A DNA stretch of 64,000 nucleotides, taken from NCBI GenBank assembly GCA_043719295.1, contig JAYSUD010000005.1:31651-95650 (forward strand). Reading direction: 5' to 3'. Positions 5,848 through 50,175 of this stretch are shown here, one piece after another. How positions within the stretch are numbered: position 1 is the first letter of the stretch; every line of letters starts with the position of its first letter. The position numbers and the translations under genes are program-made. This stretch comes from a bacterium (GTDB lineage Bacteria; Patescibacteriota; Minisyncoccia; Phycocordibacterales; UBA918). The notes below the pieces were generated by a model. It was not told the DNA's origin. It ran no database searches and saw only the letters and a program-made list of their open reading frames with translations.

Positions 5848-7113
5848 ATGGAAAAACTAGCTTGGACTACAGAAAAACGAAGTGTAATTGAACTCATACC
5901 ATACGAGAAAAACCCTCGAAAAATTAGTGAATACCAACTCAATAATCTAAAGAGGAGTTTTGAGAAATTTAATTTGGTAGAAATACCAGCTGTAGATTTA
6001 GATGGGAAAATAATCGCTGGGCACCAACGCTTAAAGGTAATGAAGTTACTTGGTCGTGAGAACGAAATTATTGACGTACGTGTTCCTAATCGTATATTGA
6101 CTGATGAAGAATACGAACAGTATTTACTCACCTCAAATGCAGTTACTGGTGAGTGGGATTTTGAACTACTGAAAGAATTTGAATTTGAGTTGTTGCAAGA
6201 TATAGGTTTTGACCAAAAAGTACTCGATGACATATGGGACACAACAGAAATAACTGAAAAAGAAAAAGTTACTGATGGTGGTGATATTAGTGTAGAAATA
6301 CAGACCAAGGTTGGTGACCTTATACAGCTCGGCAACCATAGACTGATATGTGGTGACTGTACTAACCTTGGTGTACTAAAAATACTTTGTGGCGATGAGC
6401 GATTGGATATGATTGCTAGTGACCCACCATATAATATTGACCTAGATTATAACGCTGGCATTGGTGGGAATCAGTCGTACGGTGGCAATGTAATTGATAA
6501 ACGAACCGATGAAGAGTATATAGATTTCCTACGCTCTAGTATGAAAGCGGCATTGTCAGTTGCAAAGCCAGATACACATGTTTTCTATTGGAATACTGAA
6601 CAGCACATCTGGATTTTACAGACACTATACCGAGAGCTTGGTATTGAAAACAAGAGGGTTTGTCTATGGATTAAAAATGGACACAATCCAACACCAGGTG
6701 TTGCTTTTAACAAATGCTATGAACCGTGTGTATATGGTACTAGGGGTAAGCCATTCCTGTCAGAGCATAATGAATATACTGAGATATTAAATACTGATAT
6801 AGAGAATGGAAATAAAGGCTTTAGCACCATAAATGTATGGCTTGAAAAACGTCTACCCTCAGCTGAGTATGAACACGCCACTGCCAAACCTGCTTCACTG
6901 CACGAAAGAGCAATTAAACGCTGTACACGAGCAAATGACATCATACTAGATTCATTTGGTGGATCTGGTAGCACACTCATTGCCGCTGAACAACTACATC
7001 GAAGAGCATTTCTGGTAGAGCTTGAACCTAGATTTTGTGACCTTATTTGCCAAAACTTTGAATCACTCACAGGCAAGAAACGTAAGTTAATCGGTAATTA
7101 TGCGAAAGTCTAA
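5848..7113 (+). CDS. ParB-like nuclease domain fused to an N6-adenine/N4-cytosine DNA methyltransferase (phage-type orphan MTase)
   Basis: N-terminal ParB/Srx-like region; DPPY motif (IASDPPYNIDLD); C-terminal FGGSGST AdoMet motif (beta-class order). Confidence 0.75.
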   Translation: MEKLAWTTEKRSVIELIPYEKNPRKISEYQLNNLKRSFEKFNLVEIPAVDLDGKIIAGHQRLKVMKLLGRENEIIDVRVPNRILTDEEYEQYLLTSNAVTGEWDFELLKEFEFELLQDIGFDQKVLDDIWDTTEITEKEKVTDGGDISVEIQTKVGDLIQLGNHRLICGDCTNLGVLKILCGDERLDMIASDPPYNIDLDYNAGIGGNQSYGGNVIDKRTDEEYIDFLRSSMKAALSVAKPDTHVFYWNTEQHIWILQTLYRELGIENKRVCLWIKNGHNPTPGVAFNKCYEPCVYGTRGKPFLSEHNEYTEILNTDIENGNKGFSTINVWLEKRLPSAEYEHATAKPASLHERAIKRCTRANDIILDSFGGSGSTLIAAEQLHRRAFLVELEPRFCDLICQNFESLTGKKRKLIGNYAKV

Positions 7114-8114: not shown

Positions 8115-8453
8115 AATTAATGCTTGATAGGACTTAATAATTCGTGGCGGATATACAAAAAGCCCGCCACGGGTAGAGGGCGAACCCTCTCGTACCAGTT
8201 TCCCGATACGGCCTATCAAGCAACCCCATGACGGGTTTTTTATGCTTGATAGGACTTTTCACCATGCTCCAGATATTCTCTGAAGTTTAGGCTACTTCTA
8301 AATATTCGATTCTACGAGAACAATAATAGCAGATTTTACTGCCTATTTCACTCTATCGCATGTTTGTTCTTTTGCTAAGGCTCAAACACGAGTATGTGAT
8401 GAATATGAAGTTCTGCATAGACTATGCATCATAAATGGTTCTGTCATTAATTA

Positions 8454-31509: not shown

Positions 31510-31739
31510 TATGGTATGACTCTCCGCTTATTCAAAAAAGCTAAGTGAGCTGTGACATTGTACCTGTTTTTATCTTTTTTTCAACACACTCTATAAGGCT
31601 TATGAAAATGAGTGAGAAGTGATAGGGAATCACTTCGCAAGAGGTTACCTGCTCTTTTGAAAAAAAGAGCGATAACCTGAACAGTTTCTGTAAGAAACAA
31701 AAGAGGAAACGAAGAAGTGTGCCATTTTCATAAGCCTTA

Positions 31740-45271: not shown

Positions 45272-46372
45272 CTAAAATATCCATTTTTGCAACTTCCATC
45301 CATTCCCATGTGAAAGTAAACCGAGATACGATTGGACCACAGCATCTTTGTATTCTGATTCTTTGAGCTTTCGTTCCATCCGGTTCCTGCTTGTTGTACG
45401 AAGCACTCTATGGTGCGGAAAATGTACCCACCCAAGAAAATCAACTCCTGAGGCGTGGGTAGAAATGGAAACTTTGTGTGGATGCAACTCAAGTCTTAAT
45501 GTAACCTCCAGAAATAGTACGATATATCGTACTATTTCTGCAAGGTATTTTTTATCCTGTGAGAGAAAAACAAAGTCATCGGCATAACGGATGTACTGTT
45601 TTACACTTAGTGTATGTTTTACAAACTGGTCAAATTCGTTCATGTATATATTTACGAGTAATTGTGACGTGAGATTGCCTAAAGGTAACCCTTTAGACGT
45701 TGAGCAAGGACTAACTTTGTTCACGACATCTTCATCAGTATTTGTTTTAAAGCTTTTAATTACATCTCCAAGAAGGGATAGGATATCAGTGTCAACGATA
45801 TGTCGTTTTAAAATCTCCATCAAAATTTCCTGATCAATACTTGCGAAAAACTTTCTGATGTCACATTTCAATACCCAACAAGTTTTAGTATAGTTCTTTG
45901 ACACTTTGTGTGCAAAGTTTCTAAACTGATTAATTGCTTTATGGGTTCCCTTTCCATTTCTGCACGAGTAAGAATCGTGAATAAATGTTGTGTCAAAATA
46001 TGGATACAGTTTACGGTAGAGTGCATGGTGAAGTAGTCGGTCACGTACACTTGCTTTATGAATATCACGTGGTTTTGGGTCGTTGATTTTAAATGCTTCG
46101 TATCCACCATGGCCGTACGTCTTTGCTTTTAAGTCGTTGTGAAGCGAAAGAATATTGCTCATCAGATTATATTGAAACTCTTGTACATCAGCTTTCTTTC
46201 GTTTACCTCGTACAAACTCCCTCCATGCAAGAAGTAAATTTTCTACAGAAATGATATCCTCATAGGTATGAGTGAAAAGAGTTTTGACAGTAAAGTCACC
46301 CCCCCCCGACGCAATCTCCTTCCCATTTTGGAGCGTATCAAAGAGTCCTATTTGTTTTGGCATAATTGCCAT
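45272..46372 (-). CDS. diversity-generating retroelement reverse transcriptase
   Basis: RT motifs 0-7 including YADD (YIRYADDFVFL) and the DGR-specific [L/I]GxxxSQ motif (LPLGNLTSQLLVNIYMNEF) in place of QGxxxSP; 366 aa without a maturase domain. Confidence 0.8.
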   Translation of the reverse strand: MAIMPKQIGLFDTLQNGKEIASGGGDFTVKTLFTHTYEDIISVENLLLAWREFVRGKRKKADVQEFQYNLMSNILSLHNDLKAKTYGHGGYEAFKINDPKPRDIHKASVRDRLLHHALYRKLYPYFDTTFIHDSYSCRNGKGTHKAINQFRNFAHKVSKNYTKTCWVLKCDIRKFFASIDQEILMEILKRHIVDTDILSLLGDVIKSFKTNTDEDVVNKVSPCSTSKGLPLGNLTSQLLVNIYMNEFDQFVKHTLSVKQYIRYADDFVFLSQDKKYLAEIVRYIVLFLEVTLRLELHPHKVSISTHASGVDFLGWVHFPHHRVLRTTSRNRMERKLKESEYKDAVVQSYLGLLSHGNGWKLQKWIF

Positions 46373-46666
46373 TCTACCTTACCGAAGACACACAGACATA
46401 CCCTTGGGAACAGAATTGATACTTTATATATTGAACTTATCGAAGCCGTCTCTGCTGCAGCCTTTCTTTCTAAGACAGAAAAACTTCCGTTCTTGCGTCT
46501 TGCGATACGCAAGCGTGACACGCTGACATTGTTACTTGTGATTCTTTTTGAAACAAAGTCGCTTGATATGAAGAAATTCATAAGCATATCAACTCAACTT
46601 GAAGACATTGGCAAGATGTTAGGAGGATGGATTGGGCAAGTAGAAAAACAAACACTTCCCCATTAG
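46268..46666 (+). CDS. avd: Avd-like DGR accessory protein (four-helix bundle), opposite strand to the RT
   Basis: ERIKESYLFW...LPKTHRHTLGNRI...EDIGKMLGGWIGQV parallels Bordetella-phage Avd (ERYERVISYLYP...IPRKHG...EVGRILGSWIARV); overlaps the RT N-terminus by about 100 bp, antisense. Confidence 0.6.
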   Translation: MSEKSFDSKVTPPRRNLLPILERIKESYLFWHNCHSTLPKTHRHTLGNRIDTLYIELIEAVSAAAFLSKTEKLPFLRLAIRKRDTLTLLLVILFETKSLDMKKFISISTQLEDIGKMLGGWIGQVEKQTLPH

Positions 46667-46692
46667 TGAAGAAGTGTTTGAAATGAAGCAAG

Positions 46693-46821
46693 TTGCCAGA
46701 AGCGGTGAGACGTTGTTCGCATTGCGATCATTGTCCAGCCAGTTGTAGTTCCAGGTCCATGAGCCGTCGTCGTTCCGATATAGATACAGGAAGTAGGAAT
46801 TGCCATCAGGGTTCCGCAGAA
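46693..46821 (-). repeat. DGR template repeat (TR), 129 bp
   Basis: aligns over 129 bp with VR 47150-47278; 19 mismatches, 18 of them TR-adenine (coding strand) to any base; N/AAC-rich reading frame; the track ORF 46619-46867 is this non-coding TR. Confidence 0.85.
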
Positions 46822-47126
46822 ATGTGTGCAGTGCCATCCATGCCACCACCCATAGTTTGCAGAACAAATTTAGTGTTGAATTTTATGCGGTATTAAAATA
46901 CCAAGGTATCGCACACCAAGTAACTTCATTTTTTGAAGTGTCTTCATACACCATACTATTCCAAACCGTAATCAGAAATATTCAAAATGTATGGATACTG
47001 GATTCGGTTGCAAGAAACCTTAATCGCTCGCATATGCACCTAATACCACTTTAGAGTATATCGTATAAAAAGTTTGACCGCCTCAATTTCTTGAAGCGGT
47101 CAGGGCAAAGTGCCCAAGGGCTAGAG

Positions 47127-47816
47127 CTAAATTGCAGAAGTCAAAGGACTTGCCAGAAGCGGTGAGACGCTGCGCGCACCGCGACCATAGTCCAGCCAGT
47201 AGTAGTCCCAGGCCCACGAGCCGTCGTCGTCCCGACATAGATACAGGAAGCCGGAATAGCCACCAGGGCGCCGCAGAACACTTCCTGCGAATTCCATCCA
47301 TGAAATCCTGTAAGTGTCATACAGGAAACGAAGTGTCGCCTGCCCTTTCTCTTCATGGAGCGCCTGGCCGGTCTTGGCGTCAGGGCGGATCAATCCGCCT
47401 TGCGTCAGACGTGCCAGTTTTTCGACGCCGGTGATAGTCGATTCGCCATCTCTCAGCCCGCTTTCGAAGCGAACGTTCGAGAAGTCGATTTCGGTCAAGA
47501 AGAGCGCACGCTCGTCCTGCTCACCCATTGTCCATCCCGACCCGATAAACTTCTCCGGGTCAAACGGCTTGGTGCGGTCGATCATCAGGGCGCTCGGTCC
47601 TTTGATTTGGAGCCGACAATCGTTCTTGAGGAAGGCGGTCATACGCTTACCGAGTTCGGCAGGCGACAAGTCGACCACTCCACTTTGAAGCACGTCAGGG
47701 TCAAACTGGCCCCAGTCGATGTTCGCTCCAAGTCGAAGTGACAACGCAACTGCCAGGTCACGAGAAACTGCTTTCGTCATGATAGTGTCCTCCACGCGCT
47801 GTGCCATATTCCGCAA
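47127..47816 (-). CDS. DGR target (variable) protein; VR at 47150-47278 encodes the C-terminal about 43 residues
   Basis: C-terminus ...GGYSGFLYLCRDDDGSWAWDYYWLDYGRGARSVSPLLAS corresponds to TR NPDGNSYFLYLYRNDDGSWTWNYNWLDNDRNANNVSPLLA; VR ends 21 nt before the stop, followed by GC hairpin GGGCAaagTGCCC (47104-47117) and terminator 47076-47103; GC-rich relative to neighbours. Confidence 0.8.
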   Translation of the reverse strand: MRNMAQRVEDTIMTKAVSRDLAVALSLRLGANIDWGQFDPDVLQSGVVDLSPAELGKRMTAFLKNDCRLQIKGPSALMIDRTKPFDPEKFIGSGWTMGEQDERALFLTEIDFSNVRFESGLRDGESTITGVEKLARLTQGGLIRPDAKTGQALHEEKGQATLRFLYDTYRISWMEFAGSVLRRPGGYSGFLYLCRDDDGSWAWDYYWLDYGRGARSVSPLLASPLTSAI

Positions 47817-47966
47817 CTTTGCAGAACAGGCTATAACACAATGAAAATGAGCTGTCCTAAAACGTGAAAATCACGTTTCATCAGCCCACCGATACTATAA
47901 CACATTTCTAGCAATTTTGCAACTTCGCTCAAATTAGTTTCTATTCGTAGAATCAAGGGCGTTTGT

Positions 47967-48738: not shown

Positions 48739-50175
48739 TTAATAGAGTACCCGAAGAAGCCTTTTTGTGAAAGGCGTTAGTTTTGATGCAAAGTAACCTG
48801 ACACAGTACGCTTATTGATGCGAGATGCCGATGGGTAGGCATACGTTTTATTAAAGAGTTCTTGTACGTTGAGCTTAGCTGTTTGTGCCAACACTAACTC
48901 TTGAATAAGTTCACCTGCGTTTGGTGCAACCATGGTACCTCCGAGGACTCCTCCTTTTGGTGTTATAAAAATTTTTGACTTACCGTACTGATAGCTATCG
49001 GTGATTGCTCTATCATCTTCGGTAAAATTTGTAGCAAGCACCTGGTACATGACTTTTTTCTTTTTAAGCTCATGTTCTTGTAACCCAAACGTTGCAATCT
49101 CAGGGGTTGTGTAGGTAGTCCATGAAATACCATCTCCAGTAAACTTCTTTTTAAAAGGAGAAAAGAAGTTTTTTAGTATGACGCTCGCATGCATTTCAGC
49201 CGCATGAGTAAATTGATAATTGCCAGCAATATCTCCACACAGATAGACATTTTTGTTTGTAGTACGTAGAAACGAATCAACAACAATTTTTCCACTTTCT
49301 TTTTGCTTGATACCCGCTTTTTCTAATGATAAATCTTCCGTGTTTAAGACACGTCCAATGCCAACAAATACTGCATCGAAGTCAATCGTAGTTGTAGTTC
49401 CATCATTTTTTGAAAAGATTGCTTGGTTTGAAGAGATAAATTCTATTAGTGTATGTTGAAGTAAGAATCGAACTCCTTCTTTTTCCATTTCCGTACGCAA
49501 CACCAGAGCGATTTCAGGATCTTCTTTATTCAGGATCTGTGAAGCTGGATCAGCAATAGTAACGCATGACCCTAGATACGAAAGTGATTGCGCGAGCTCA
49601 ATACCAATAGGACCCCCCCCGAGAAAAAGAATGCGTTTCGGTAGTTCCTCCATAGTAAAAACATTCTCATTATTAAGTACTGTTGTTACTTTTTCAATTC
49701 CCTGCCCCACAAGTTCTCGTGGACGAGAGCCAGTAGCTAATACAATTTTTTTTGCAGAGTATGTAGTCCCATTAACGGATACTGAGTTTTTGGATATAAA
49801 TGAGGCAGCACCTAAGACAACAGTCATTCCTTTTCCTTCAAACCATTTTGCATTTTCATGTTCCCGAATGCTCTCTTGTTTTTCTTTAATATACGTACGA
49901 ACTTTTTTCCAGTTAACATCACCAGTAGCGACAACACCAAACGCCTCTGCATTTTTAGCGTCATGCACCATACGTGCTACATGAATAAGTGCTTTAGAGG
50001 GTATACATCCAAAGTTTAAACAGTCTCCTCCGATATGGGAATCGCTTTTATCAATGAGCAACACTTTAAAACCAACACGGTTCATAAATCCTGCAATATT
50101 AAGACCACCCGATCCGGCGCCTATGACAATGATGTCAAATACATTTTTTTCTTTCATAGTTGTTATATTATCCAT
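48739..50175 (-). CDS. FAD-dependent pyridine nucleotide-disulfide oxidoreductase (class I)
   Basis: GAGSGG FAD motif, redox-active GGDCLNFGCIPSK, NAD motif, C-terminal dimerisation domain. Confidence 0.75.
   Translation of the reverse strand: MDNITTMKEKNVFDIIVIGAGSGGLNIAGFMNRVGFKVLLIDKSDSHIGGDCLNFGCIPSKALIHVARMVHDAKNAEAFGVVATGDVNWKKVRTYIKEKQESIREHENAKWFEGKGMTVVLGAASFISKNSVSVNGTTYSAKKIVLATGSRPRELVGQGIEKVTTVLNNENVFTMEELPKRILFLGGGPIGIELAQSLSYLGSCVTIADPASQILNKEDPEIALVLRTEMEKEGVRFLLQHTLIEFISSNQAIFSKNDGTTTTIDFDAVFVGIGRVLNTEDLSLEKAGIKQKESGKIVVDSFLRTTNKNVYLCGDIAGNYQFTHAAEMHASVILKNFFSPFKKKFTGDGISWTTYTTPEIATFGLQEHELKKKKVMYQVLATNFTEDDRAITDSYQYGKSKIFITPKGGVLGGTMVAPNAGELIQELVLAQTAKLNVQELFNKTYAYPSASRINKRTVSGYFASKLTPFTKRLLRVLY

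Follow-up and report, generated by a model that had tools for sequence, protein, structure and literature searches.

The window examined here is a 64,000-nt stretch (positions 31,651 to 95,650) of contig JAYSUD010000005.1 from a bacterium of the Patescibacteria, and it carries, with little room for doubt, a genuine, intact and chromosomal diversity-generating retroelement (DGR) of the clade found in Patescibacteria (the Candidate Phyla Radiation; CPR). Within this element the gene for the reverse transcriptase (RT) and, on the opposite strand, the gene for the Avd protein overlap head to head around a simple-sequence repeat, and the conservation of such a tract at this junction in related loci is firmly shown. 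Chances are about even that the tract works as a slipped-strand contingency switch gating Avd and, in the subclade to which the window belongs, the RT also. A broader proposal is put forward a little more tentatively, namely that insertion of the repeat lets a single slip toggle avd and RT, and hence hypermutation, and that the same clade defines a new family of structured leader RNAs, joined to the template repeat (TR), that scaffolds the RT-Avd particle. The element is laid out along the minus strand in the order target gene with its variable repeat (VR), leader-TR RNA, avd (antisense), repeat tract and RT. The repeats and open reading frames (ORFs) are as follows.

46693-46821, minus strand: TR, whose mismatches with the VR are nearly all at TR adenines
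47150-47278, minus strand: VR, with 18 of its 19 differences from the TR at TR adenines
47137-47169, minus strand: VR end resembling an initiation of mutagenic homing (IMH) site; a 20-nt GC-rich stretch equal to the TR (47150-47169) ends ...GGCAAG, and the sequences diverge at 47137-47149
47127-47780, minus strand: target gene, 217 amino acids plus stop; predicted three-helix bundle at the N-terminus, then a C-type-lectin-like domain, the last strands being encoded by the VR
46268-46666, plus strand (antisense to TR and RT): avd, 132-amino-acid long ORF, conserved Avd domain from residue 18 (about 46319)
45272-46372, minus strand: DGR RT, 366-amino-acid ORF; start ATG at 46372 or 46363, reading through the tract, with the conserved core (T-YEDIISVENLL) from about 46267
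46299-46307, C9 on the plus strand (Avd sense) and G9 on the RT-sense strand: simple-sequence repeat and candidate slipped-strand switch, within the head-to-head overlap of Avd and RT

Each component of the complete DGR proposed in the first-pass annotation of this stretch (TR/VR pair, RT, Avd, hairpin and terminator) was located and tested, an IMH-like GC-rich end is present as well, and the proposal was borne out. When the pairwise alignment was re-tabulated by TR base, the 129-nt repeats were found in register at an offset of 457 with 19 mismatches, 18 of them at TR adenines, as originally counted. These 18 mismatches are at T on the plus strand, corresponding to adenine on the minus (coding) strand, and they account for 18 of the 33 TR adenines; the single non-adenine mismatch is a plus-strand A at 46795, a T on the coding strand. 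The hypergeometric probability of 18 or more of 19 mismatches falling at adenines is 3.9e-12. The change from TR to VR comprises 13 A>G, three A>T and two A>C substitutions, and this 13/18 share of A>G is typical, since the pooled spectrum of related loci, where mismatches are again nearly all at TR adenines, is similar (A>G 561, A>T 211, A>C 168; A>G 60%). With respect to the frame of the target gene, 11 TR adenines occupy codon position 1, 18 position 2 and four position 3. The TR frame is indeed rich in Asn, with nine such codons (six AAC and three AAT) among 42, and the peptides encoded by TR and VR differ at 14 amino acids. No further copy of the TR is present elsewhere in the 64-kb window. 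The VR ends 21 nt before the stop codon (47127-47129), the distance reported previously, and the contrast between VR ...GCAAG and TR ...GCAAC is kept across the clade. The elements of this clade diversify in nature, for which two related loci from different samples, L020 and L021, provide direct evidence: over 3.15 kb they share 99.4% identity, and of the 17 single-nucleotide polymorphisms (SNPs) between them 15 fall inside a 95-nt VR (L020 829-922). The only other contig of the window locus itself, L095, is 100% identical and probably derives from the same source; exact look-ups of neighbouring proteins otherwise yielded contigs that stop short of the junction.

The RT contains the LPLGNLTSQ and YADD sequences that the annotation had singled out, corresponding to the (I/L)GxxxSQ motif and YxDD box of DGR RTs. 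It matches Pfam RVT_1 (E=6.8e-27), and its best relative in the Protein Data Bank (PDB) is bRT of the BPP-1 DGR (8ub7, E=1.9e-37, aligned over residues 38-350), whereas group II and retron RTs score about 1e-18 in the same search. Sequence searching as a check on RT class therefore placed bRT nearest, ahead of retron and group II enzymes, and the RT is not frameshifted; its ORF and catalytic motifs, together with the target and avd ORFs, are intact and in frame in the window. Identity of the RT to those of related loci is 61-81%, and that of Avd 53-90%. The Avd-like gene that had been recognised between TR and RT matches Pfam PF22296 (bAvd; 41.1 bits, cut-off 40) and NCBIfam NF033474 (DivGenRetAVD; 57.9 bits, E=1e-15), positions 1-103 of the latter profile aligning to Avd residues 18-122; the NCBIfam score lies under the cut-off of 80, which counts against the assignment, and Avd has no match among PDB sequences. 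The overlap of the Avd and RT ORFs, previously put at about 100 bp, measures 105 nt. The element is flanked by housekeeping genes (cold-shock protein, SpoU methylase, DUF1295 and disulphide oxidoreductase) and the synteny of RT and cold-shock gene is conserved in the closest relative, L005; on these grounds the element is regarded as chromosomal.

CPR DGRs with an antisense avd have been catalogued since 2017. The first-pass annotation correctly placed avd on the opposite strand but considered this unusual, whereas it is the B3 architecture already in print, TR-(avd)-RT with a reverse-strand avd, to which 90% of the DGRs in the CPR set belong (Wu et al. 2018, NAR, PMC5758913). Patescibacteria DGRs form a separate, almost entirely cellular clade, and the group that includes the window matches DGR clade 2 (Roux et al. 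2021, PMC8144416). Relatives were gathered with the window RT, giving 80 metagenome loci with upstream sequence (61-70% identity, among more than 560 matches), and Avd is antisense in 80/80. In all, the comparison took in about 90 related loci. The TR lies just upstream of the 3' end of avd in 58 of 68 related loci, with the VR further upstream (TR start minus VR start 366-679 nt, most 414-509). The window element is thus a member of the B3 group, sharing its gene order, its reverse-strand avd, its location on a cellular Patescibacteria chromosome, its small unannotated target with a C-terminal VR, and its TR adenines at codon positions 1 and 2. Nothing differs in kind, and as a DGR the element is ordinary, adding one more example to the known CPR type; the repeat tract, the leader of 220 nt and the excess of GC at third codon positions (GC3) described below are not mentioned in the published accounts consulted. 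More distant B3-type DGRs are found on IMG/VR contigs L100, L101 and L103-L105, which are filed as viral; L100 and L101 retain a recognisable leader, and all of these contigs are without the junction repeat.

At the avd/RT junction, an alignment of eight loci places a G tract (RT-sense strand) at the same site in 8/8, and across about 72 related loci the tract ranges from G6 to G16 with a mode of G10. Distances to the conserved cores are 15-72 nt for the RT, the tract being upstream, and 17-35 nt for Avd. Four loci without a G tract have instead (GT)7, (GA)9, (GA)12 or (CTGG)9 at the exact site, which brings the loci with a repeat there to about 76, and one locus, L036, has only GCGGGGAGG there. 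Such runs are otherwise rare: the non-redundant sequence of the loci (478 kb) has 73 G/C runs of 8 or more, and the junction tract makes up 71 of them. Tract length also appears to vary between close relatives. Two of three independent pairs of near-identical contigs differ in tract length as their sole indel (L001 G12 and L002 G11, with 2 SNPs in 9.2 kb; L020 G10 and L021 G8), a polymorphism that has to be read with the reservation, unfavourable to a switch, that homopolymer lengths in short-read assemblies are error-prone. More distant B3-type DGRs from IMG/VR, whose RTs are 47-58% identical, have no repeat at this site. Their Avd and RT starts lie head to head with an overlap of about 9-13 nt, the Avd start being upstream, within the RT 5' end, and Avd opens with a short non-conserved extension before an LP(I/V)(L/I)..K motif. 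Since these relatives do without it, the repeat is viewed as an insertion into a head-to-head overlap and not as a requirement of the DGR mechanism. The window holds one other G/C run of 8 or more, a C8 at 49613-49620 inside the pyridine nucleotide-disulphide oxidoreductase ORF 48739-50175 (minus strand), which could be another slippage-prone site.

Part of the argument for a switch lies in how the tract is read in the two ORFs. In the window, the long Avd ORF runs from ATG 46268 in frame through the tract to give MSEKSFDSKVTPPRRNLLPILERIK..., and the RT ORF runs in frame from ATG 46372 or 46363 through the same tract to give ...EIASGGGDFTVKTLFTHTYEDIIS; a canonical RT start downstream of the tract has been lost. 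Simulated tract lengths of 6, 9 and 12 yield full-length Avd and RT, whereas lengths of 7, 8, 10 and 11 yield Avd of 31-86 and RT of 24-43 amino acids (for C8 and C10, Avd of 85 and 32 and RT of 42 and 25, respectively). Read on the opposite strand, the start codon of either gene is an in-frame His codon of its partner; for this reason the Avd and RT extensions are codon-antiparallel, and a tract length that suits one frame suits the other. That the Avd and RT frame offsets agree (24/26) was accordingly rejected as independent evidence, being a geometric consequence of this complementarity. Conservation of Avd, in the form of (R/K)xLLPxLE with synonymous changes, extends to within 2-8 nt of the tract, and in the window there is no start codon in between. 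The (CTGG)9 and (GT)7 repeats are in frame in Avd ORFs that start at the equivalent ATG, while in the two (GA)n loci the repeat is one unit out of the Avd frame. Finally, an upstream ATG with an ORF open into the tract is found in 24/29 loci that have no downstream RT start, compared to 2/24 loci that have one (p=4e-8).

Were the tract to act in this manner, a slip of 1 or 2 bp in either direction would truncate the Avd and RT ORFs jointly and turn hypermutation off, heritably and reversibly; the window allele would be in the on/on phase and most sampled populations in an off phase. Several observations weigh against a switch of this kind. Avd is in frame with the upstream ATG in only 10/53 loci, and the RT is in frame where it needs to be in only about 6/35. 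A TTG lies between the tract and the Avd core in 51/72 loci, and an RT start is present downstream of the tract in 41/72, usually 13 nt past it, so that in many loci the tract may sit in 5' leaders and a short Avd may be possible at any tract length. The association between start design and open upstream ORF is not phylogenetically independent, because the two designs follow subclades. As to precedent, no link of DGRs to homopolymers, simple-sequence repeats or phase variation was found in the literature, a search outside which Paul et al. 2017 lies, and a prior description is therefore possible. Two further readings of the junction were discarded. The stop-free linker (52/53), considered as proof of translation, is partly forced by the conserved I-Q-F-x-H peptide of the RT on the other strand, and a conserved ATGCCA, considered as a general RT start, is the reverse complement of Avd W-H codons and has an in-frame open ORF in 6/72 loci only.

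These points are accommodated by the chief alternative to a switch, in which the tract is a fixed cis-element (a G-rich ribosome-binding site or 5'-leader element, a spacer between the two head-to-head genes, or a place where RNA polymerase or the ribosome slips, so that RT and Avd expression stays low at any DNA length) and Avd and RT are expressed constitutively from starts on the near side. This is possible, though on balance doubtful. The canonical RT start past the tract is typically at exactly 13 nt in the 41/72 loci that have it, and several others have ATT at the same spacing; the TTG before the Avd core and the shortage of on states (10/53, rarer than chance) fit as well, and the tract and its four replacement repeats are all G-rich on the RT-sense strand. 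On the other hand, the presence of four repeat chemistries at one site indicates selection for repetitiveness and not for a specific sequence, and a fixed element is not readily reconciled with tract lengths that vary between near-identical contigs. The amino acid conservation of Avd up to 2-8 nt from the tract, with no start there in the window, and the position of the Avd start in repeat-free relatives, upstream and inside the RT 5' end, similarly favour translation through the site. The tract also has no conserved flanking -35/-10 pair; indeed, a role as the spacer of a divergent promoter had been considered and was rejected because no conserved hexamers flank it.

The contingency switch, if that is what the tract is, has counterparts in the simple-sequence repeat loci of Neisseria, Haemophilus and Campylobacter and of Bordetella fim, with which it shares a homopolymer (here of 9) at the 5' end of ORFs, alternative repeats in orthologues, an apparent length polymorphism in related loci and truncation upon a change of one unit (in silico here). 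It differs from them in that one tract lies in two head-to-head, codon-antiparallel ORFs and is predicted to toggle both, and in that the controlled product would be a mutator as opposed to a surface antigen. A switch of this kind would constitute second-order bet-hedging, by which a lineage could hold on to a useful variant. Gating of RT and Avd by such a repeat would offer a concrete model for control of DGRs and for the escape of a beneficial variant from further mutagenesis.

The second part of the broader proposal concerns the region between VR and TR, which might be taken for a spacer. Profile matching and covariation instead identify it as a predicted, conserved and structured leader of the TR RNA. 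The features relevant to this RNA and to the end of the target transcript that precedes it are listed below.

47104-47116, minus strand: small GC hairpin GGGCAAAGTGCCC (GGGCA-N3-TGCCC), read from the sequence, downstream of the VR
47075-47102, minus strand: intrinsic-terminator-like hairpin plus T run, predicted to end the target transcript
47055-47060, minus strand: TATACT, a -10-like hexamer and putative TR RNA promoter, picked by eye at the conserved position (the top hit of the promoter scan in the window is elsewhere)
46822-47042, minus strand: structured 5' leader of about 220 nt with seven helices, predicted from profile match and covariation
46922-46931, minus strand: 5' strand of the putative TR-bracketing duplex, AAAUGAAGUU, from covariation
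46681-46689, minus strand: 3' strand of the putative duplex, GCUUCAUUU, within the conserved motif CUCUUCAUUUCUC on the 3' side of the TR (IMH*-side flank)
46649-46680, minus strand: GC-rich stem-loop plus U run directly 3' of the TR, spanning the avd stop on the other strand; putative Avd-binding element and TR RNA end

The GC hairpin and terminator that had been reported after the VR were both recovered in place. A GGGC-N3-4-GCCC hairpin occurs at the equivalent position in a subset of related loci, and related loci have a strong hairpin at the position of the target terminator. About 33/48 loci have a -10-like hexamer right after that terminator, 340-360 nt upstream of the 3' end of the TR, and a TG frequently precedes it. 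The leader profile (nhmmer) matches the window at 47042-46818 with E=2.5e-46 and finds one copy per TR in 73/100 sequences. Predicted leader helices are paired in 93.9% of alignment cells compared to 72.4% after shuffling (0/500 shuffles reached the observed value) and 37-45% when partners were slid, and compensatory double changes occur in 41/47 pairs. The leader includes two hairpins with GAUUACGGUUU-like loops and a 12-bp helix that ends at the TR 5' boundary. Just 5' of this helix, a conserved AAAUGAAGA is predicted to pair with UCUUCAUUU in the motif that follows the TR, closing the TR into a loop; the strands of this bracketing duplex may also be written AAAUGAAG/CUUCAUUU. The duplex is paired in 83.6% of cells compared to 74% shuffled (0/500) and 41-63% slid, with 31 double-change cells where 9.9 were expected. 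The hairpin 3' of the TR folds in every related locus, and its stem sequence covaries. In its leader, duplex, stem-loop and IMH-like end, the window agrees with the clade consensus.

Stem-loops just downstream of the TR have been reported previously, and a 'cPRT Stop duplex' and an 'Avd-binding stem-loop' have been inferred for 207 of 278 Avd-type DGRs, from TR flanks limited to 40 nt on the upstream and 100 nt on the downstream side (Handa et al., bioRxiv 10.1101/2023.10.23.563531). The bracketing duplex and 3' stem-loop of the window correspond to these two elements. Rfam was searched with 46200-47150, the RT-1 to RT-19 motifs (Weinberg et al.) being covered, and no family matched at E up to 10. 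With ends predicted near 47048 (5') and 46645 (3'), the TR RNA appears to be an independent transcript, about 400 nt long, that has a promoter and a terminator to itself, convergent with avd and separate from the RT mRNA. The alignment of the leader, whose covariation is very strong, would be ready for use in defining an RNA family absent from Rfam.

A mechanism can be proposed by analogy with BPP-1. The TR RNA would be made from its own promoter just past the target terminator and would fold around RT and Avd. The cDNA would be primed in cis near the 3' end of the TR, with misincorporation opposite adenines, the accepted outcomes in the clade being 60% A>G. This cDNA would then replace the VR, with the GC-rich ...GCAAG end serving as IMH, while the ...GCAAC of the TR and the different sequence downstream of it would protect the template. 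In this way a small protein with a weakly lectin-like fold would have as many as about 20 codons of its exposed, ligand-binding face recoded. The BPP-1 DGR (mtd-avd-TR-brt; PDB 8ub7) shares with the window a homologous RT and Avd, adenine-specific transfer from TR to VR, a GC-rich IMH-like VR end with a hairpin downstream of the VR, and an upstream/downstream duplex around the TR with a stem-loop just 3' of it. The window differs in that a promoter and a terminator apparently serve the TR RNA alone, the Rfam RT-10 (Sp) motif has no match in it, the target is a protein of 217 amino acids without a signal peptide as opposed to a phage tail-fibre tip, and the repeat tract is absent from BPP-1. 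The leader-TR-stem-loop RNA would carry the ribonucleoprotein model of BPP-1 over to a distant lineage that has another gene layout.

The target gene was originally given as 229 amino acids from a TTG at 47816. This start was revised: ATG 47780, with a GGAGGA Shine-Dalgarno sequence upstream, is the likelier start and yields 217 amino acids, identical to database protein P0001. One further feature lies ahead of it.

47894-47922, minus strand: promoter-like site for the target (TTGCAA-17-TATAGT with TG), a pattern match from a consensus scan

The annotation had also described an N-terminal domain of about 185 residues with neither a recognisable fold nor a signal peptide. A signal peptide is indeed lacking, so that the protein probably acts inside the cell, but the predicted lectin-like part spans approximately residues 100-213 and is not confined to the last 45 amino acids. 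The 40 homologues, all unannotated, come from Saccharibacteria, Kaiserbacteria, Adlerbacteria and other Patescibacteria, and in their alignment the body is conserved and the C-terminus hypervariable, on the scaffold LR.S.G.R.FL.L.R..DGSW.W...WL...R....VSPLLAS. An AlphaFold model built from the family alignment (pLDDT, the predicted local distance difference test, 91.7) has a three-helix bundle followed by an alpha/beta domain, the last four strands of which are the VR. Profile searches of the target against Pfam, NCBIfam and PDB gave nothing significant, as did Foldseek searches of the model against PDB and BFVD. A lectin fold, weakly C-type-lectin-like in the model, is likely but not established, and is kept at that level because Foldseek gave no significant match. 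In the model the organisation resembles that of known DGR variable proteins with C-type-lectin folds (Mtd 1yu0 and TvpA 2y3c, with the C-terminal domain of Legionella Lcl, 8q4e, as lectin-fold comparator), the VR being predicted to form C-terminal strands and loops of a lectin-like alpha/beta domain on a scaffold rich in aromatic residues (W, Y).

One target homologue, P0004 (264 amino acids, on a contig of 2189 nt), runs past ...VSPLLAT into LFISNTSSFRKCLFFHLS..., and this extra peptide matches the translated 3' flank of the window TR (ORF 46619-46867), which suggests a VR-TR recombination that deleted the leader. The ORF in question, 82 amino acids spanning the TR on the minus strand (46619-46867), has a weak match to Pfam CotH (E=0.006). 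CotH matches have been noted for the CLec3 VR class (Wu et al. 2018, PMC5758913).

The target is also, as first remarked, markedly GC-rich, with a GC of 0.566 and GC3 of 0.63 in a window of 0.40 GC, compared to GC3 of 0.35 for the RT and 0.26-0.37 for neighbour genes. This is a property of the clade. At first pass, GC3 of the non-VR part of the target exceeded that of the RT in 48/49 loci, and after trimming to start codons it did so in 45/45 (means 0.685 and 0.507; Wilcoxon p=6e-14). Target and RT GC3 are correlated across loci (rho=0.61), and in the most AT-rich hosts the target lies as much as 40 points higher. L005, with a target 75% identical in amino acids to that of the window, has the excess too. 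Spill-over of adenine mutagenesis was rejected as the cause, third-position A/(A+T) being 0.442 in targets and 0.448 in RTs. Acquisition of the target from a GC-rich donor, with recent grafting onto a resident AT-rich RT and Avd, would fit the contrast with neighbour genes, and could draw on the fact that most family members reside in genomes of 53-58% GC and on a rough amelioration estimate that could fit acquisition before the window lineage and L005 separated. It is nonetheless unlikely, since the excess is systematic, follows host composition and is retained in L005, and since RT, Avd and target are about equally far from their GC-rich relatives (64%, 55% and 57% identity, respectively). 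A single recent horizontal transfer is likewise an unlikely explanation, because the GC3 offset is clade-wide. Candidates for the cause are GC-biased repair associated with recombination at the retrohoming target, or selection on the mRNA; the clade-wide excess may report on recombination or repair at retrohoming targets.

It is distinctly unlikely that the element is a relic, in which the divergence of TR and VR records past activity and the target is no longer diversified. That the window has lost the canonical RT start on the downstream side of the tract would be consistent with decay, as would the state of the closest relative, L005, whose long RT and Avd ORFs are both out of frame and come out truncated in gene calls. 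Conversely, the three ORFs of the window are intact and in frame and the RT catalytic motifs are preserved, the leader, duplex, stem-loop and IMH-like end conform to the clade consensus, and VR turnover between samples is seen in a related locus. An ordinary duplication next to a retron or group II intron RT, for which it could be said that the best NCBIfam match of the RT is a group II RT/maturase (146 bits, far under the 300-bit cut-off, and ranked first because NCBIfam has no DGR RT model), is refuted by the adenine bias (P=3.9e-12), by the lead of about 19 orders of magnitude held by bRT as solved relative, by SQ in place of SP in the RT motif, by the presence of Avd, and by the lack of any match to an intron RNA or msr/msd family.

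Several related loci depart from the single-cassette arrangement. L001 (142-2577 and 6001-7399) has two target-leader-TR modules in one genome, with 300 nt in common at 95% identity; the first has intact Avd and RT and a target (189 amino acids) of another family than the second, and the second retains a truncated Avd remnant and no RT. The L003/L009 module (6001-7113) consists of a target, leader and TR; neither RT nor Avd is found within 6 kb to either side, and it is either an orphan served in trans or a decayed element. L004 (1-16630) has two tandem targets with one common TR, and its cassette lies on or beside an integrative conjugative element, as judged from the adjoining genes for a tyrosine integrase, a TrwB-type coupling protein, a relaxase and ArdC. 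Elsewhere in the window, at 8175-8293 on the minus strand, there is a full-length match to the Rfam LOOT RNA (RF03000), scoring 89.6 bits against a gathering score of 46.4.

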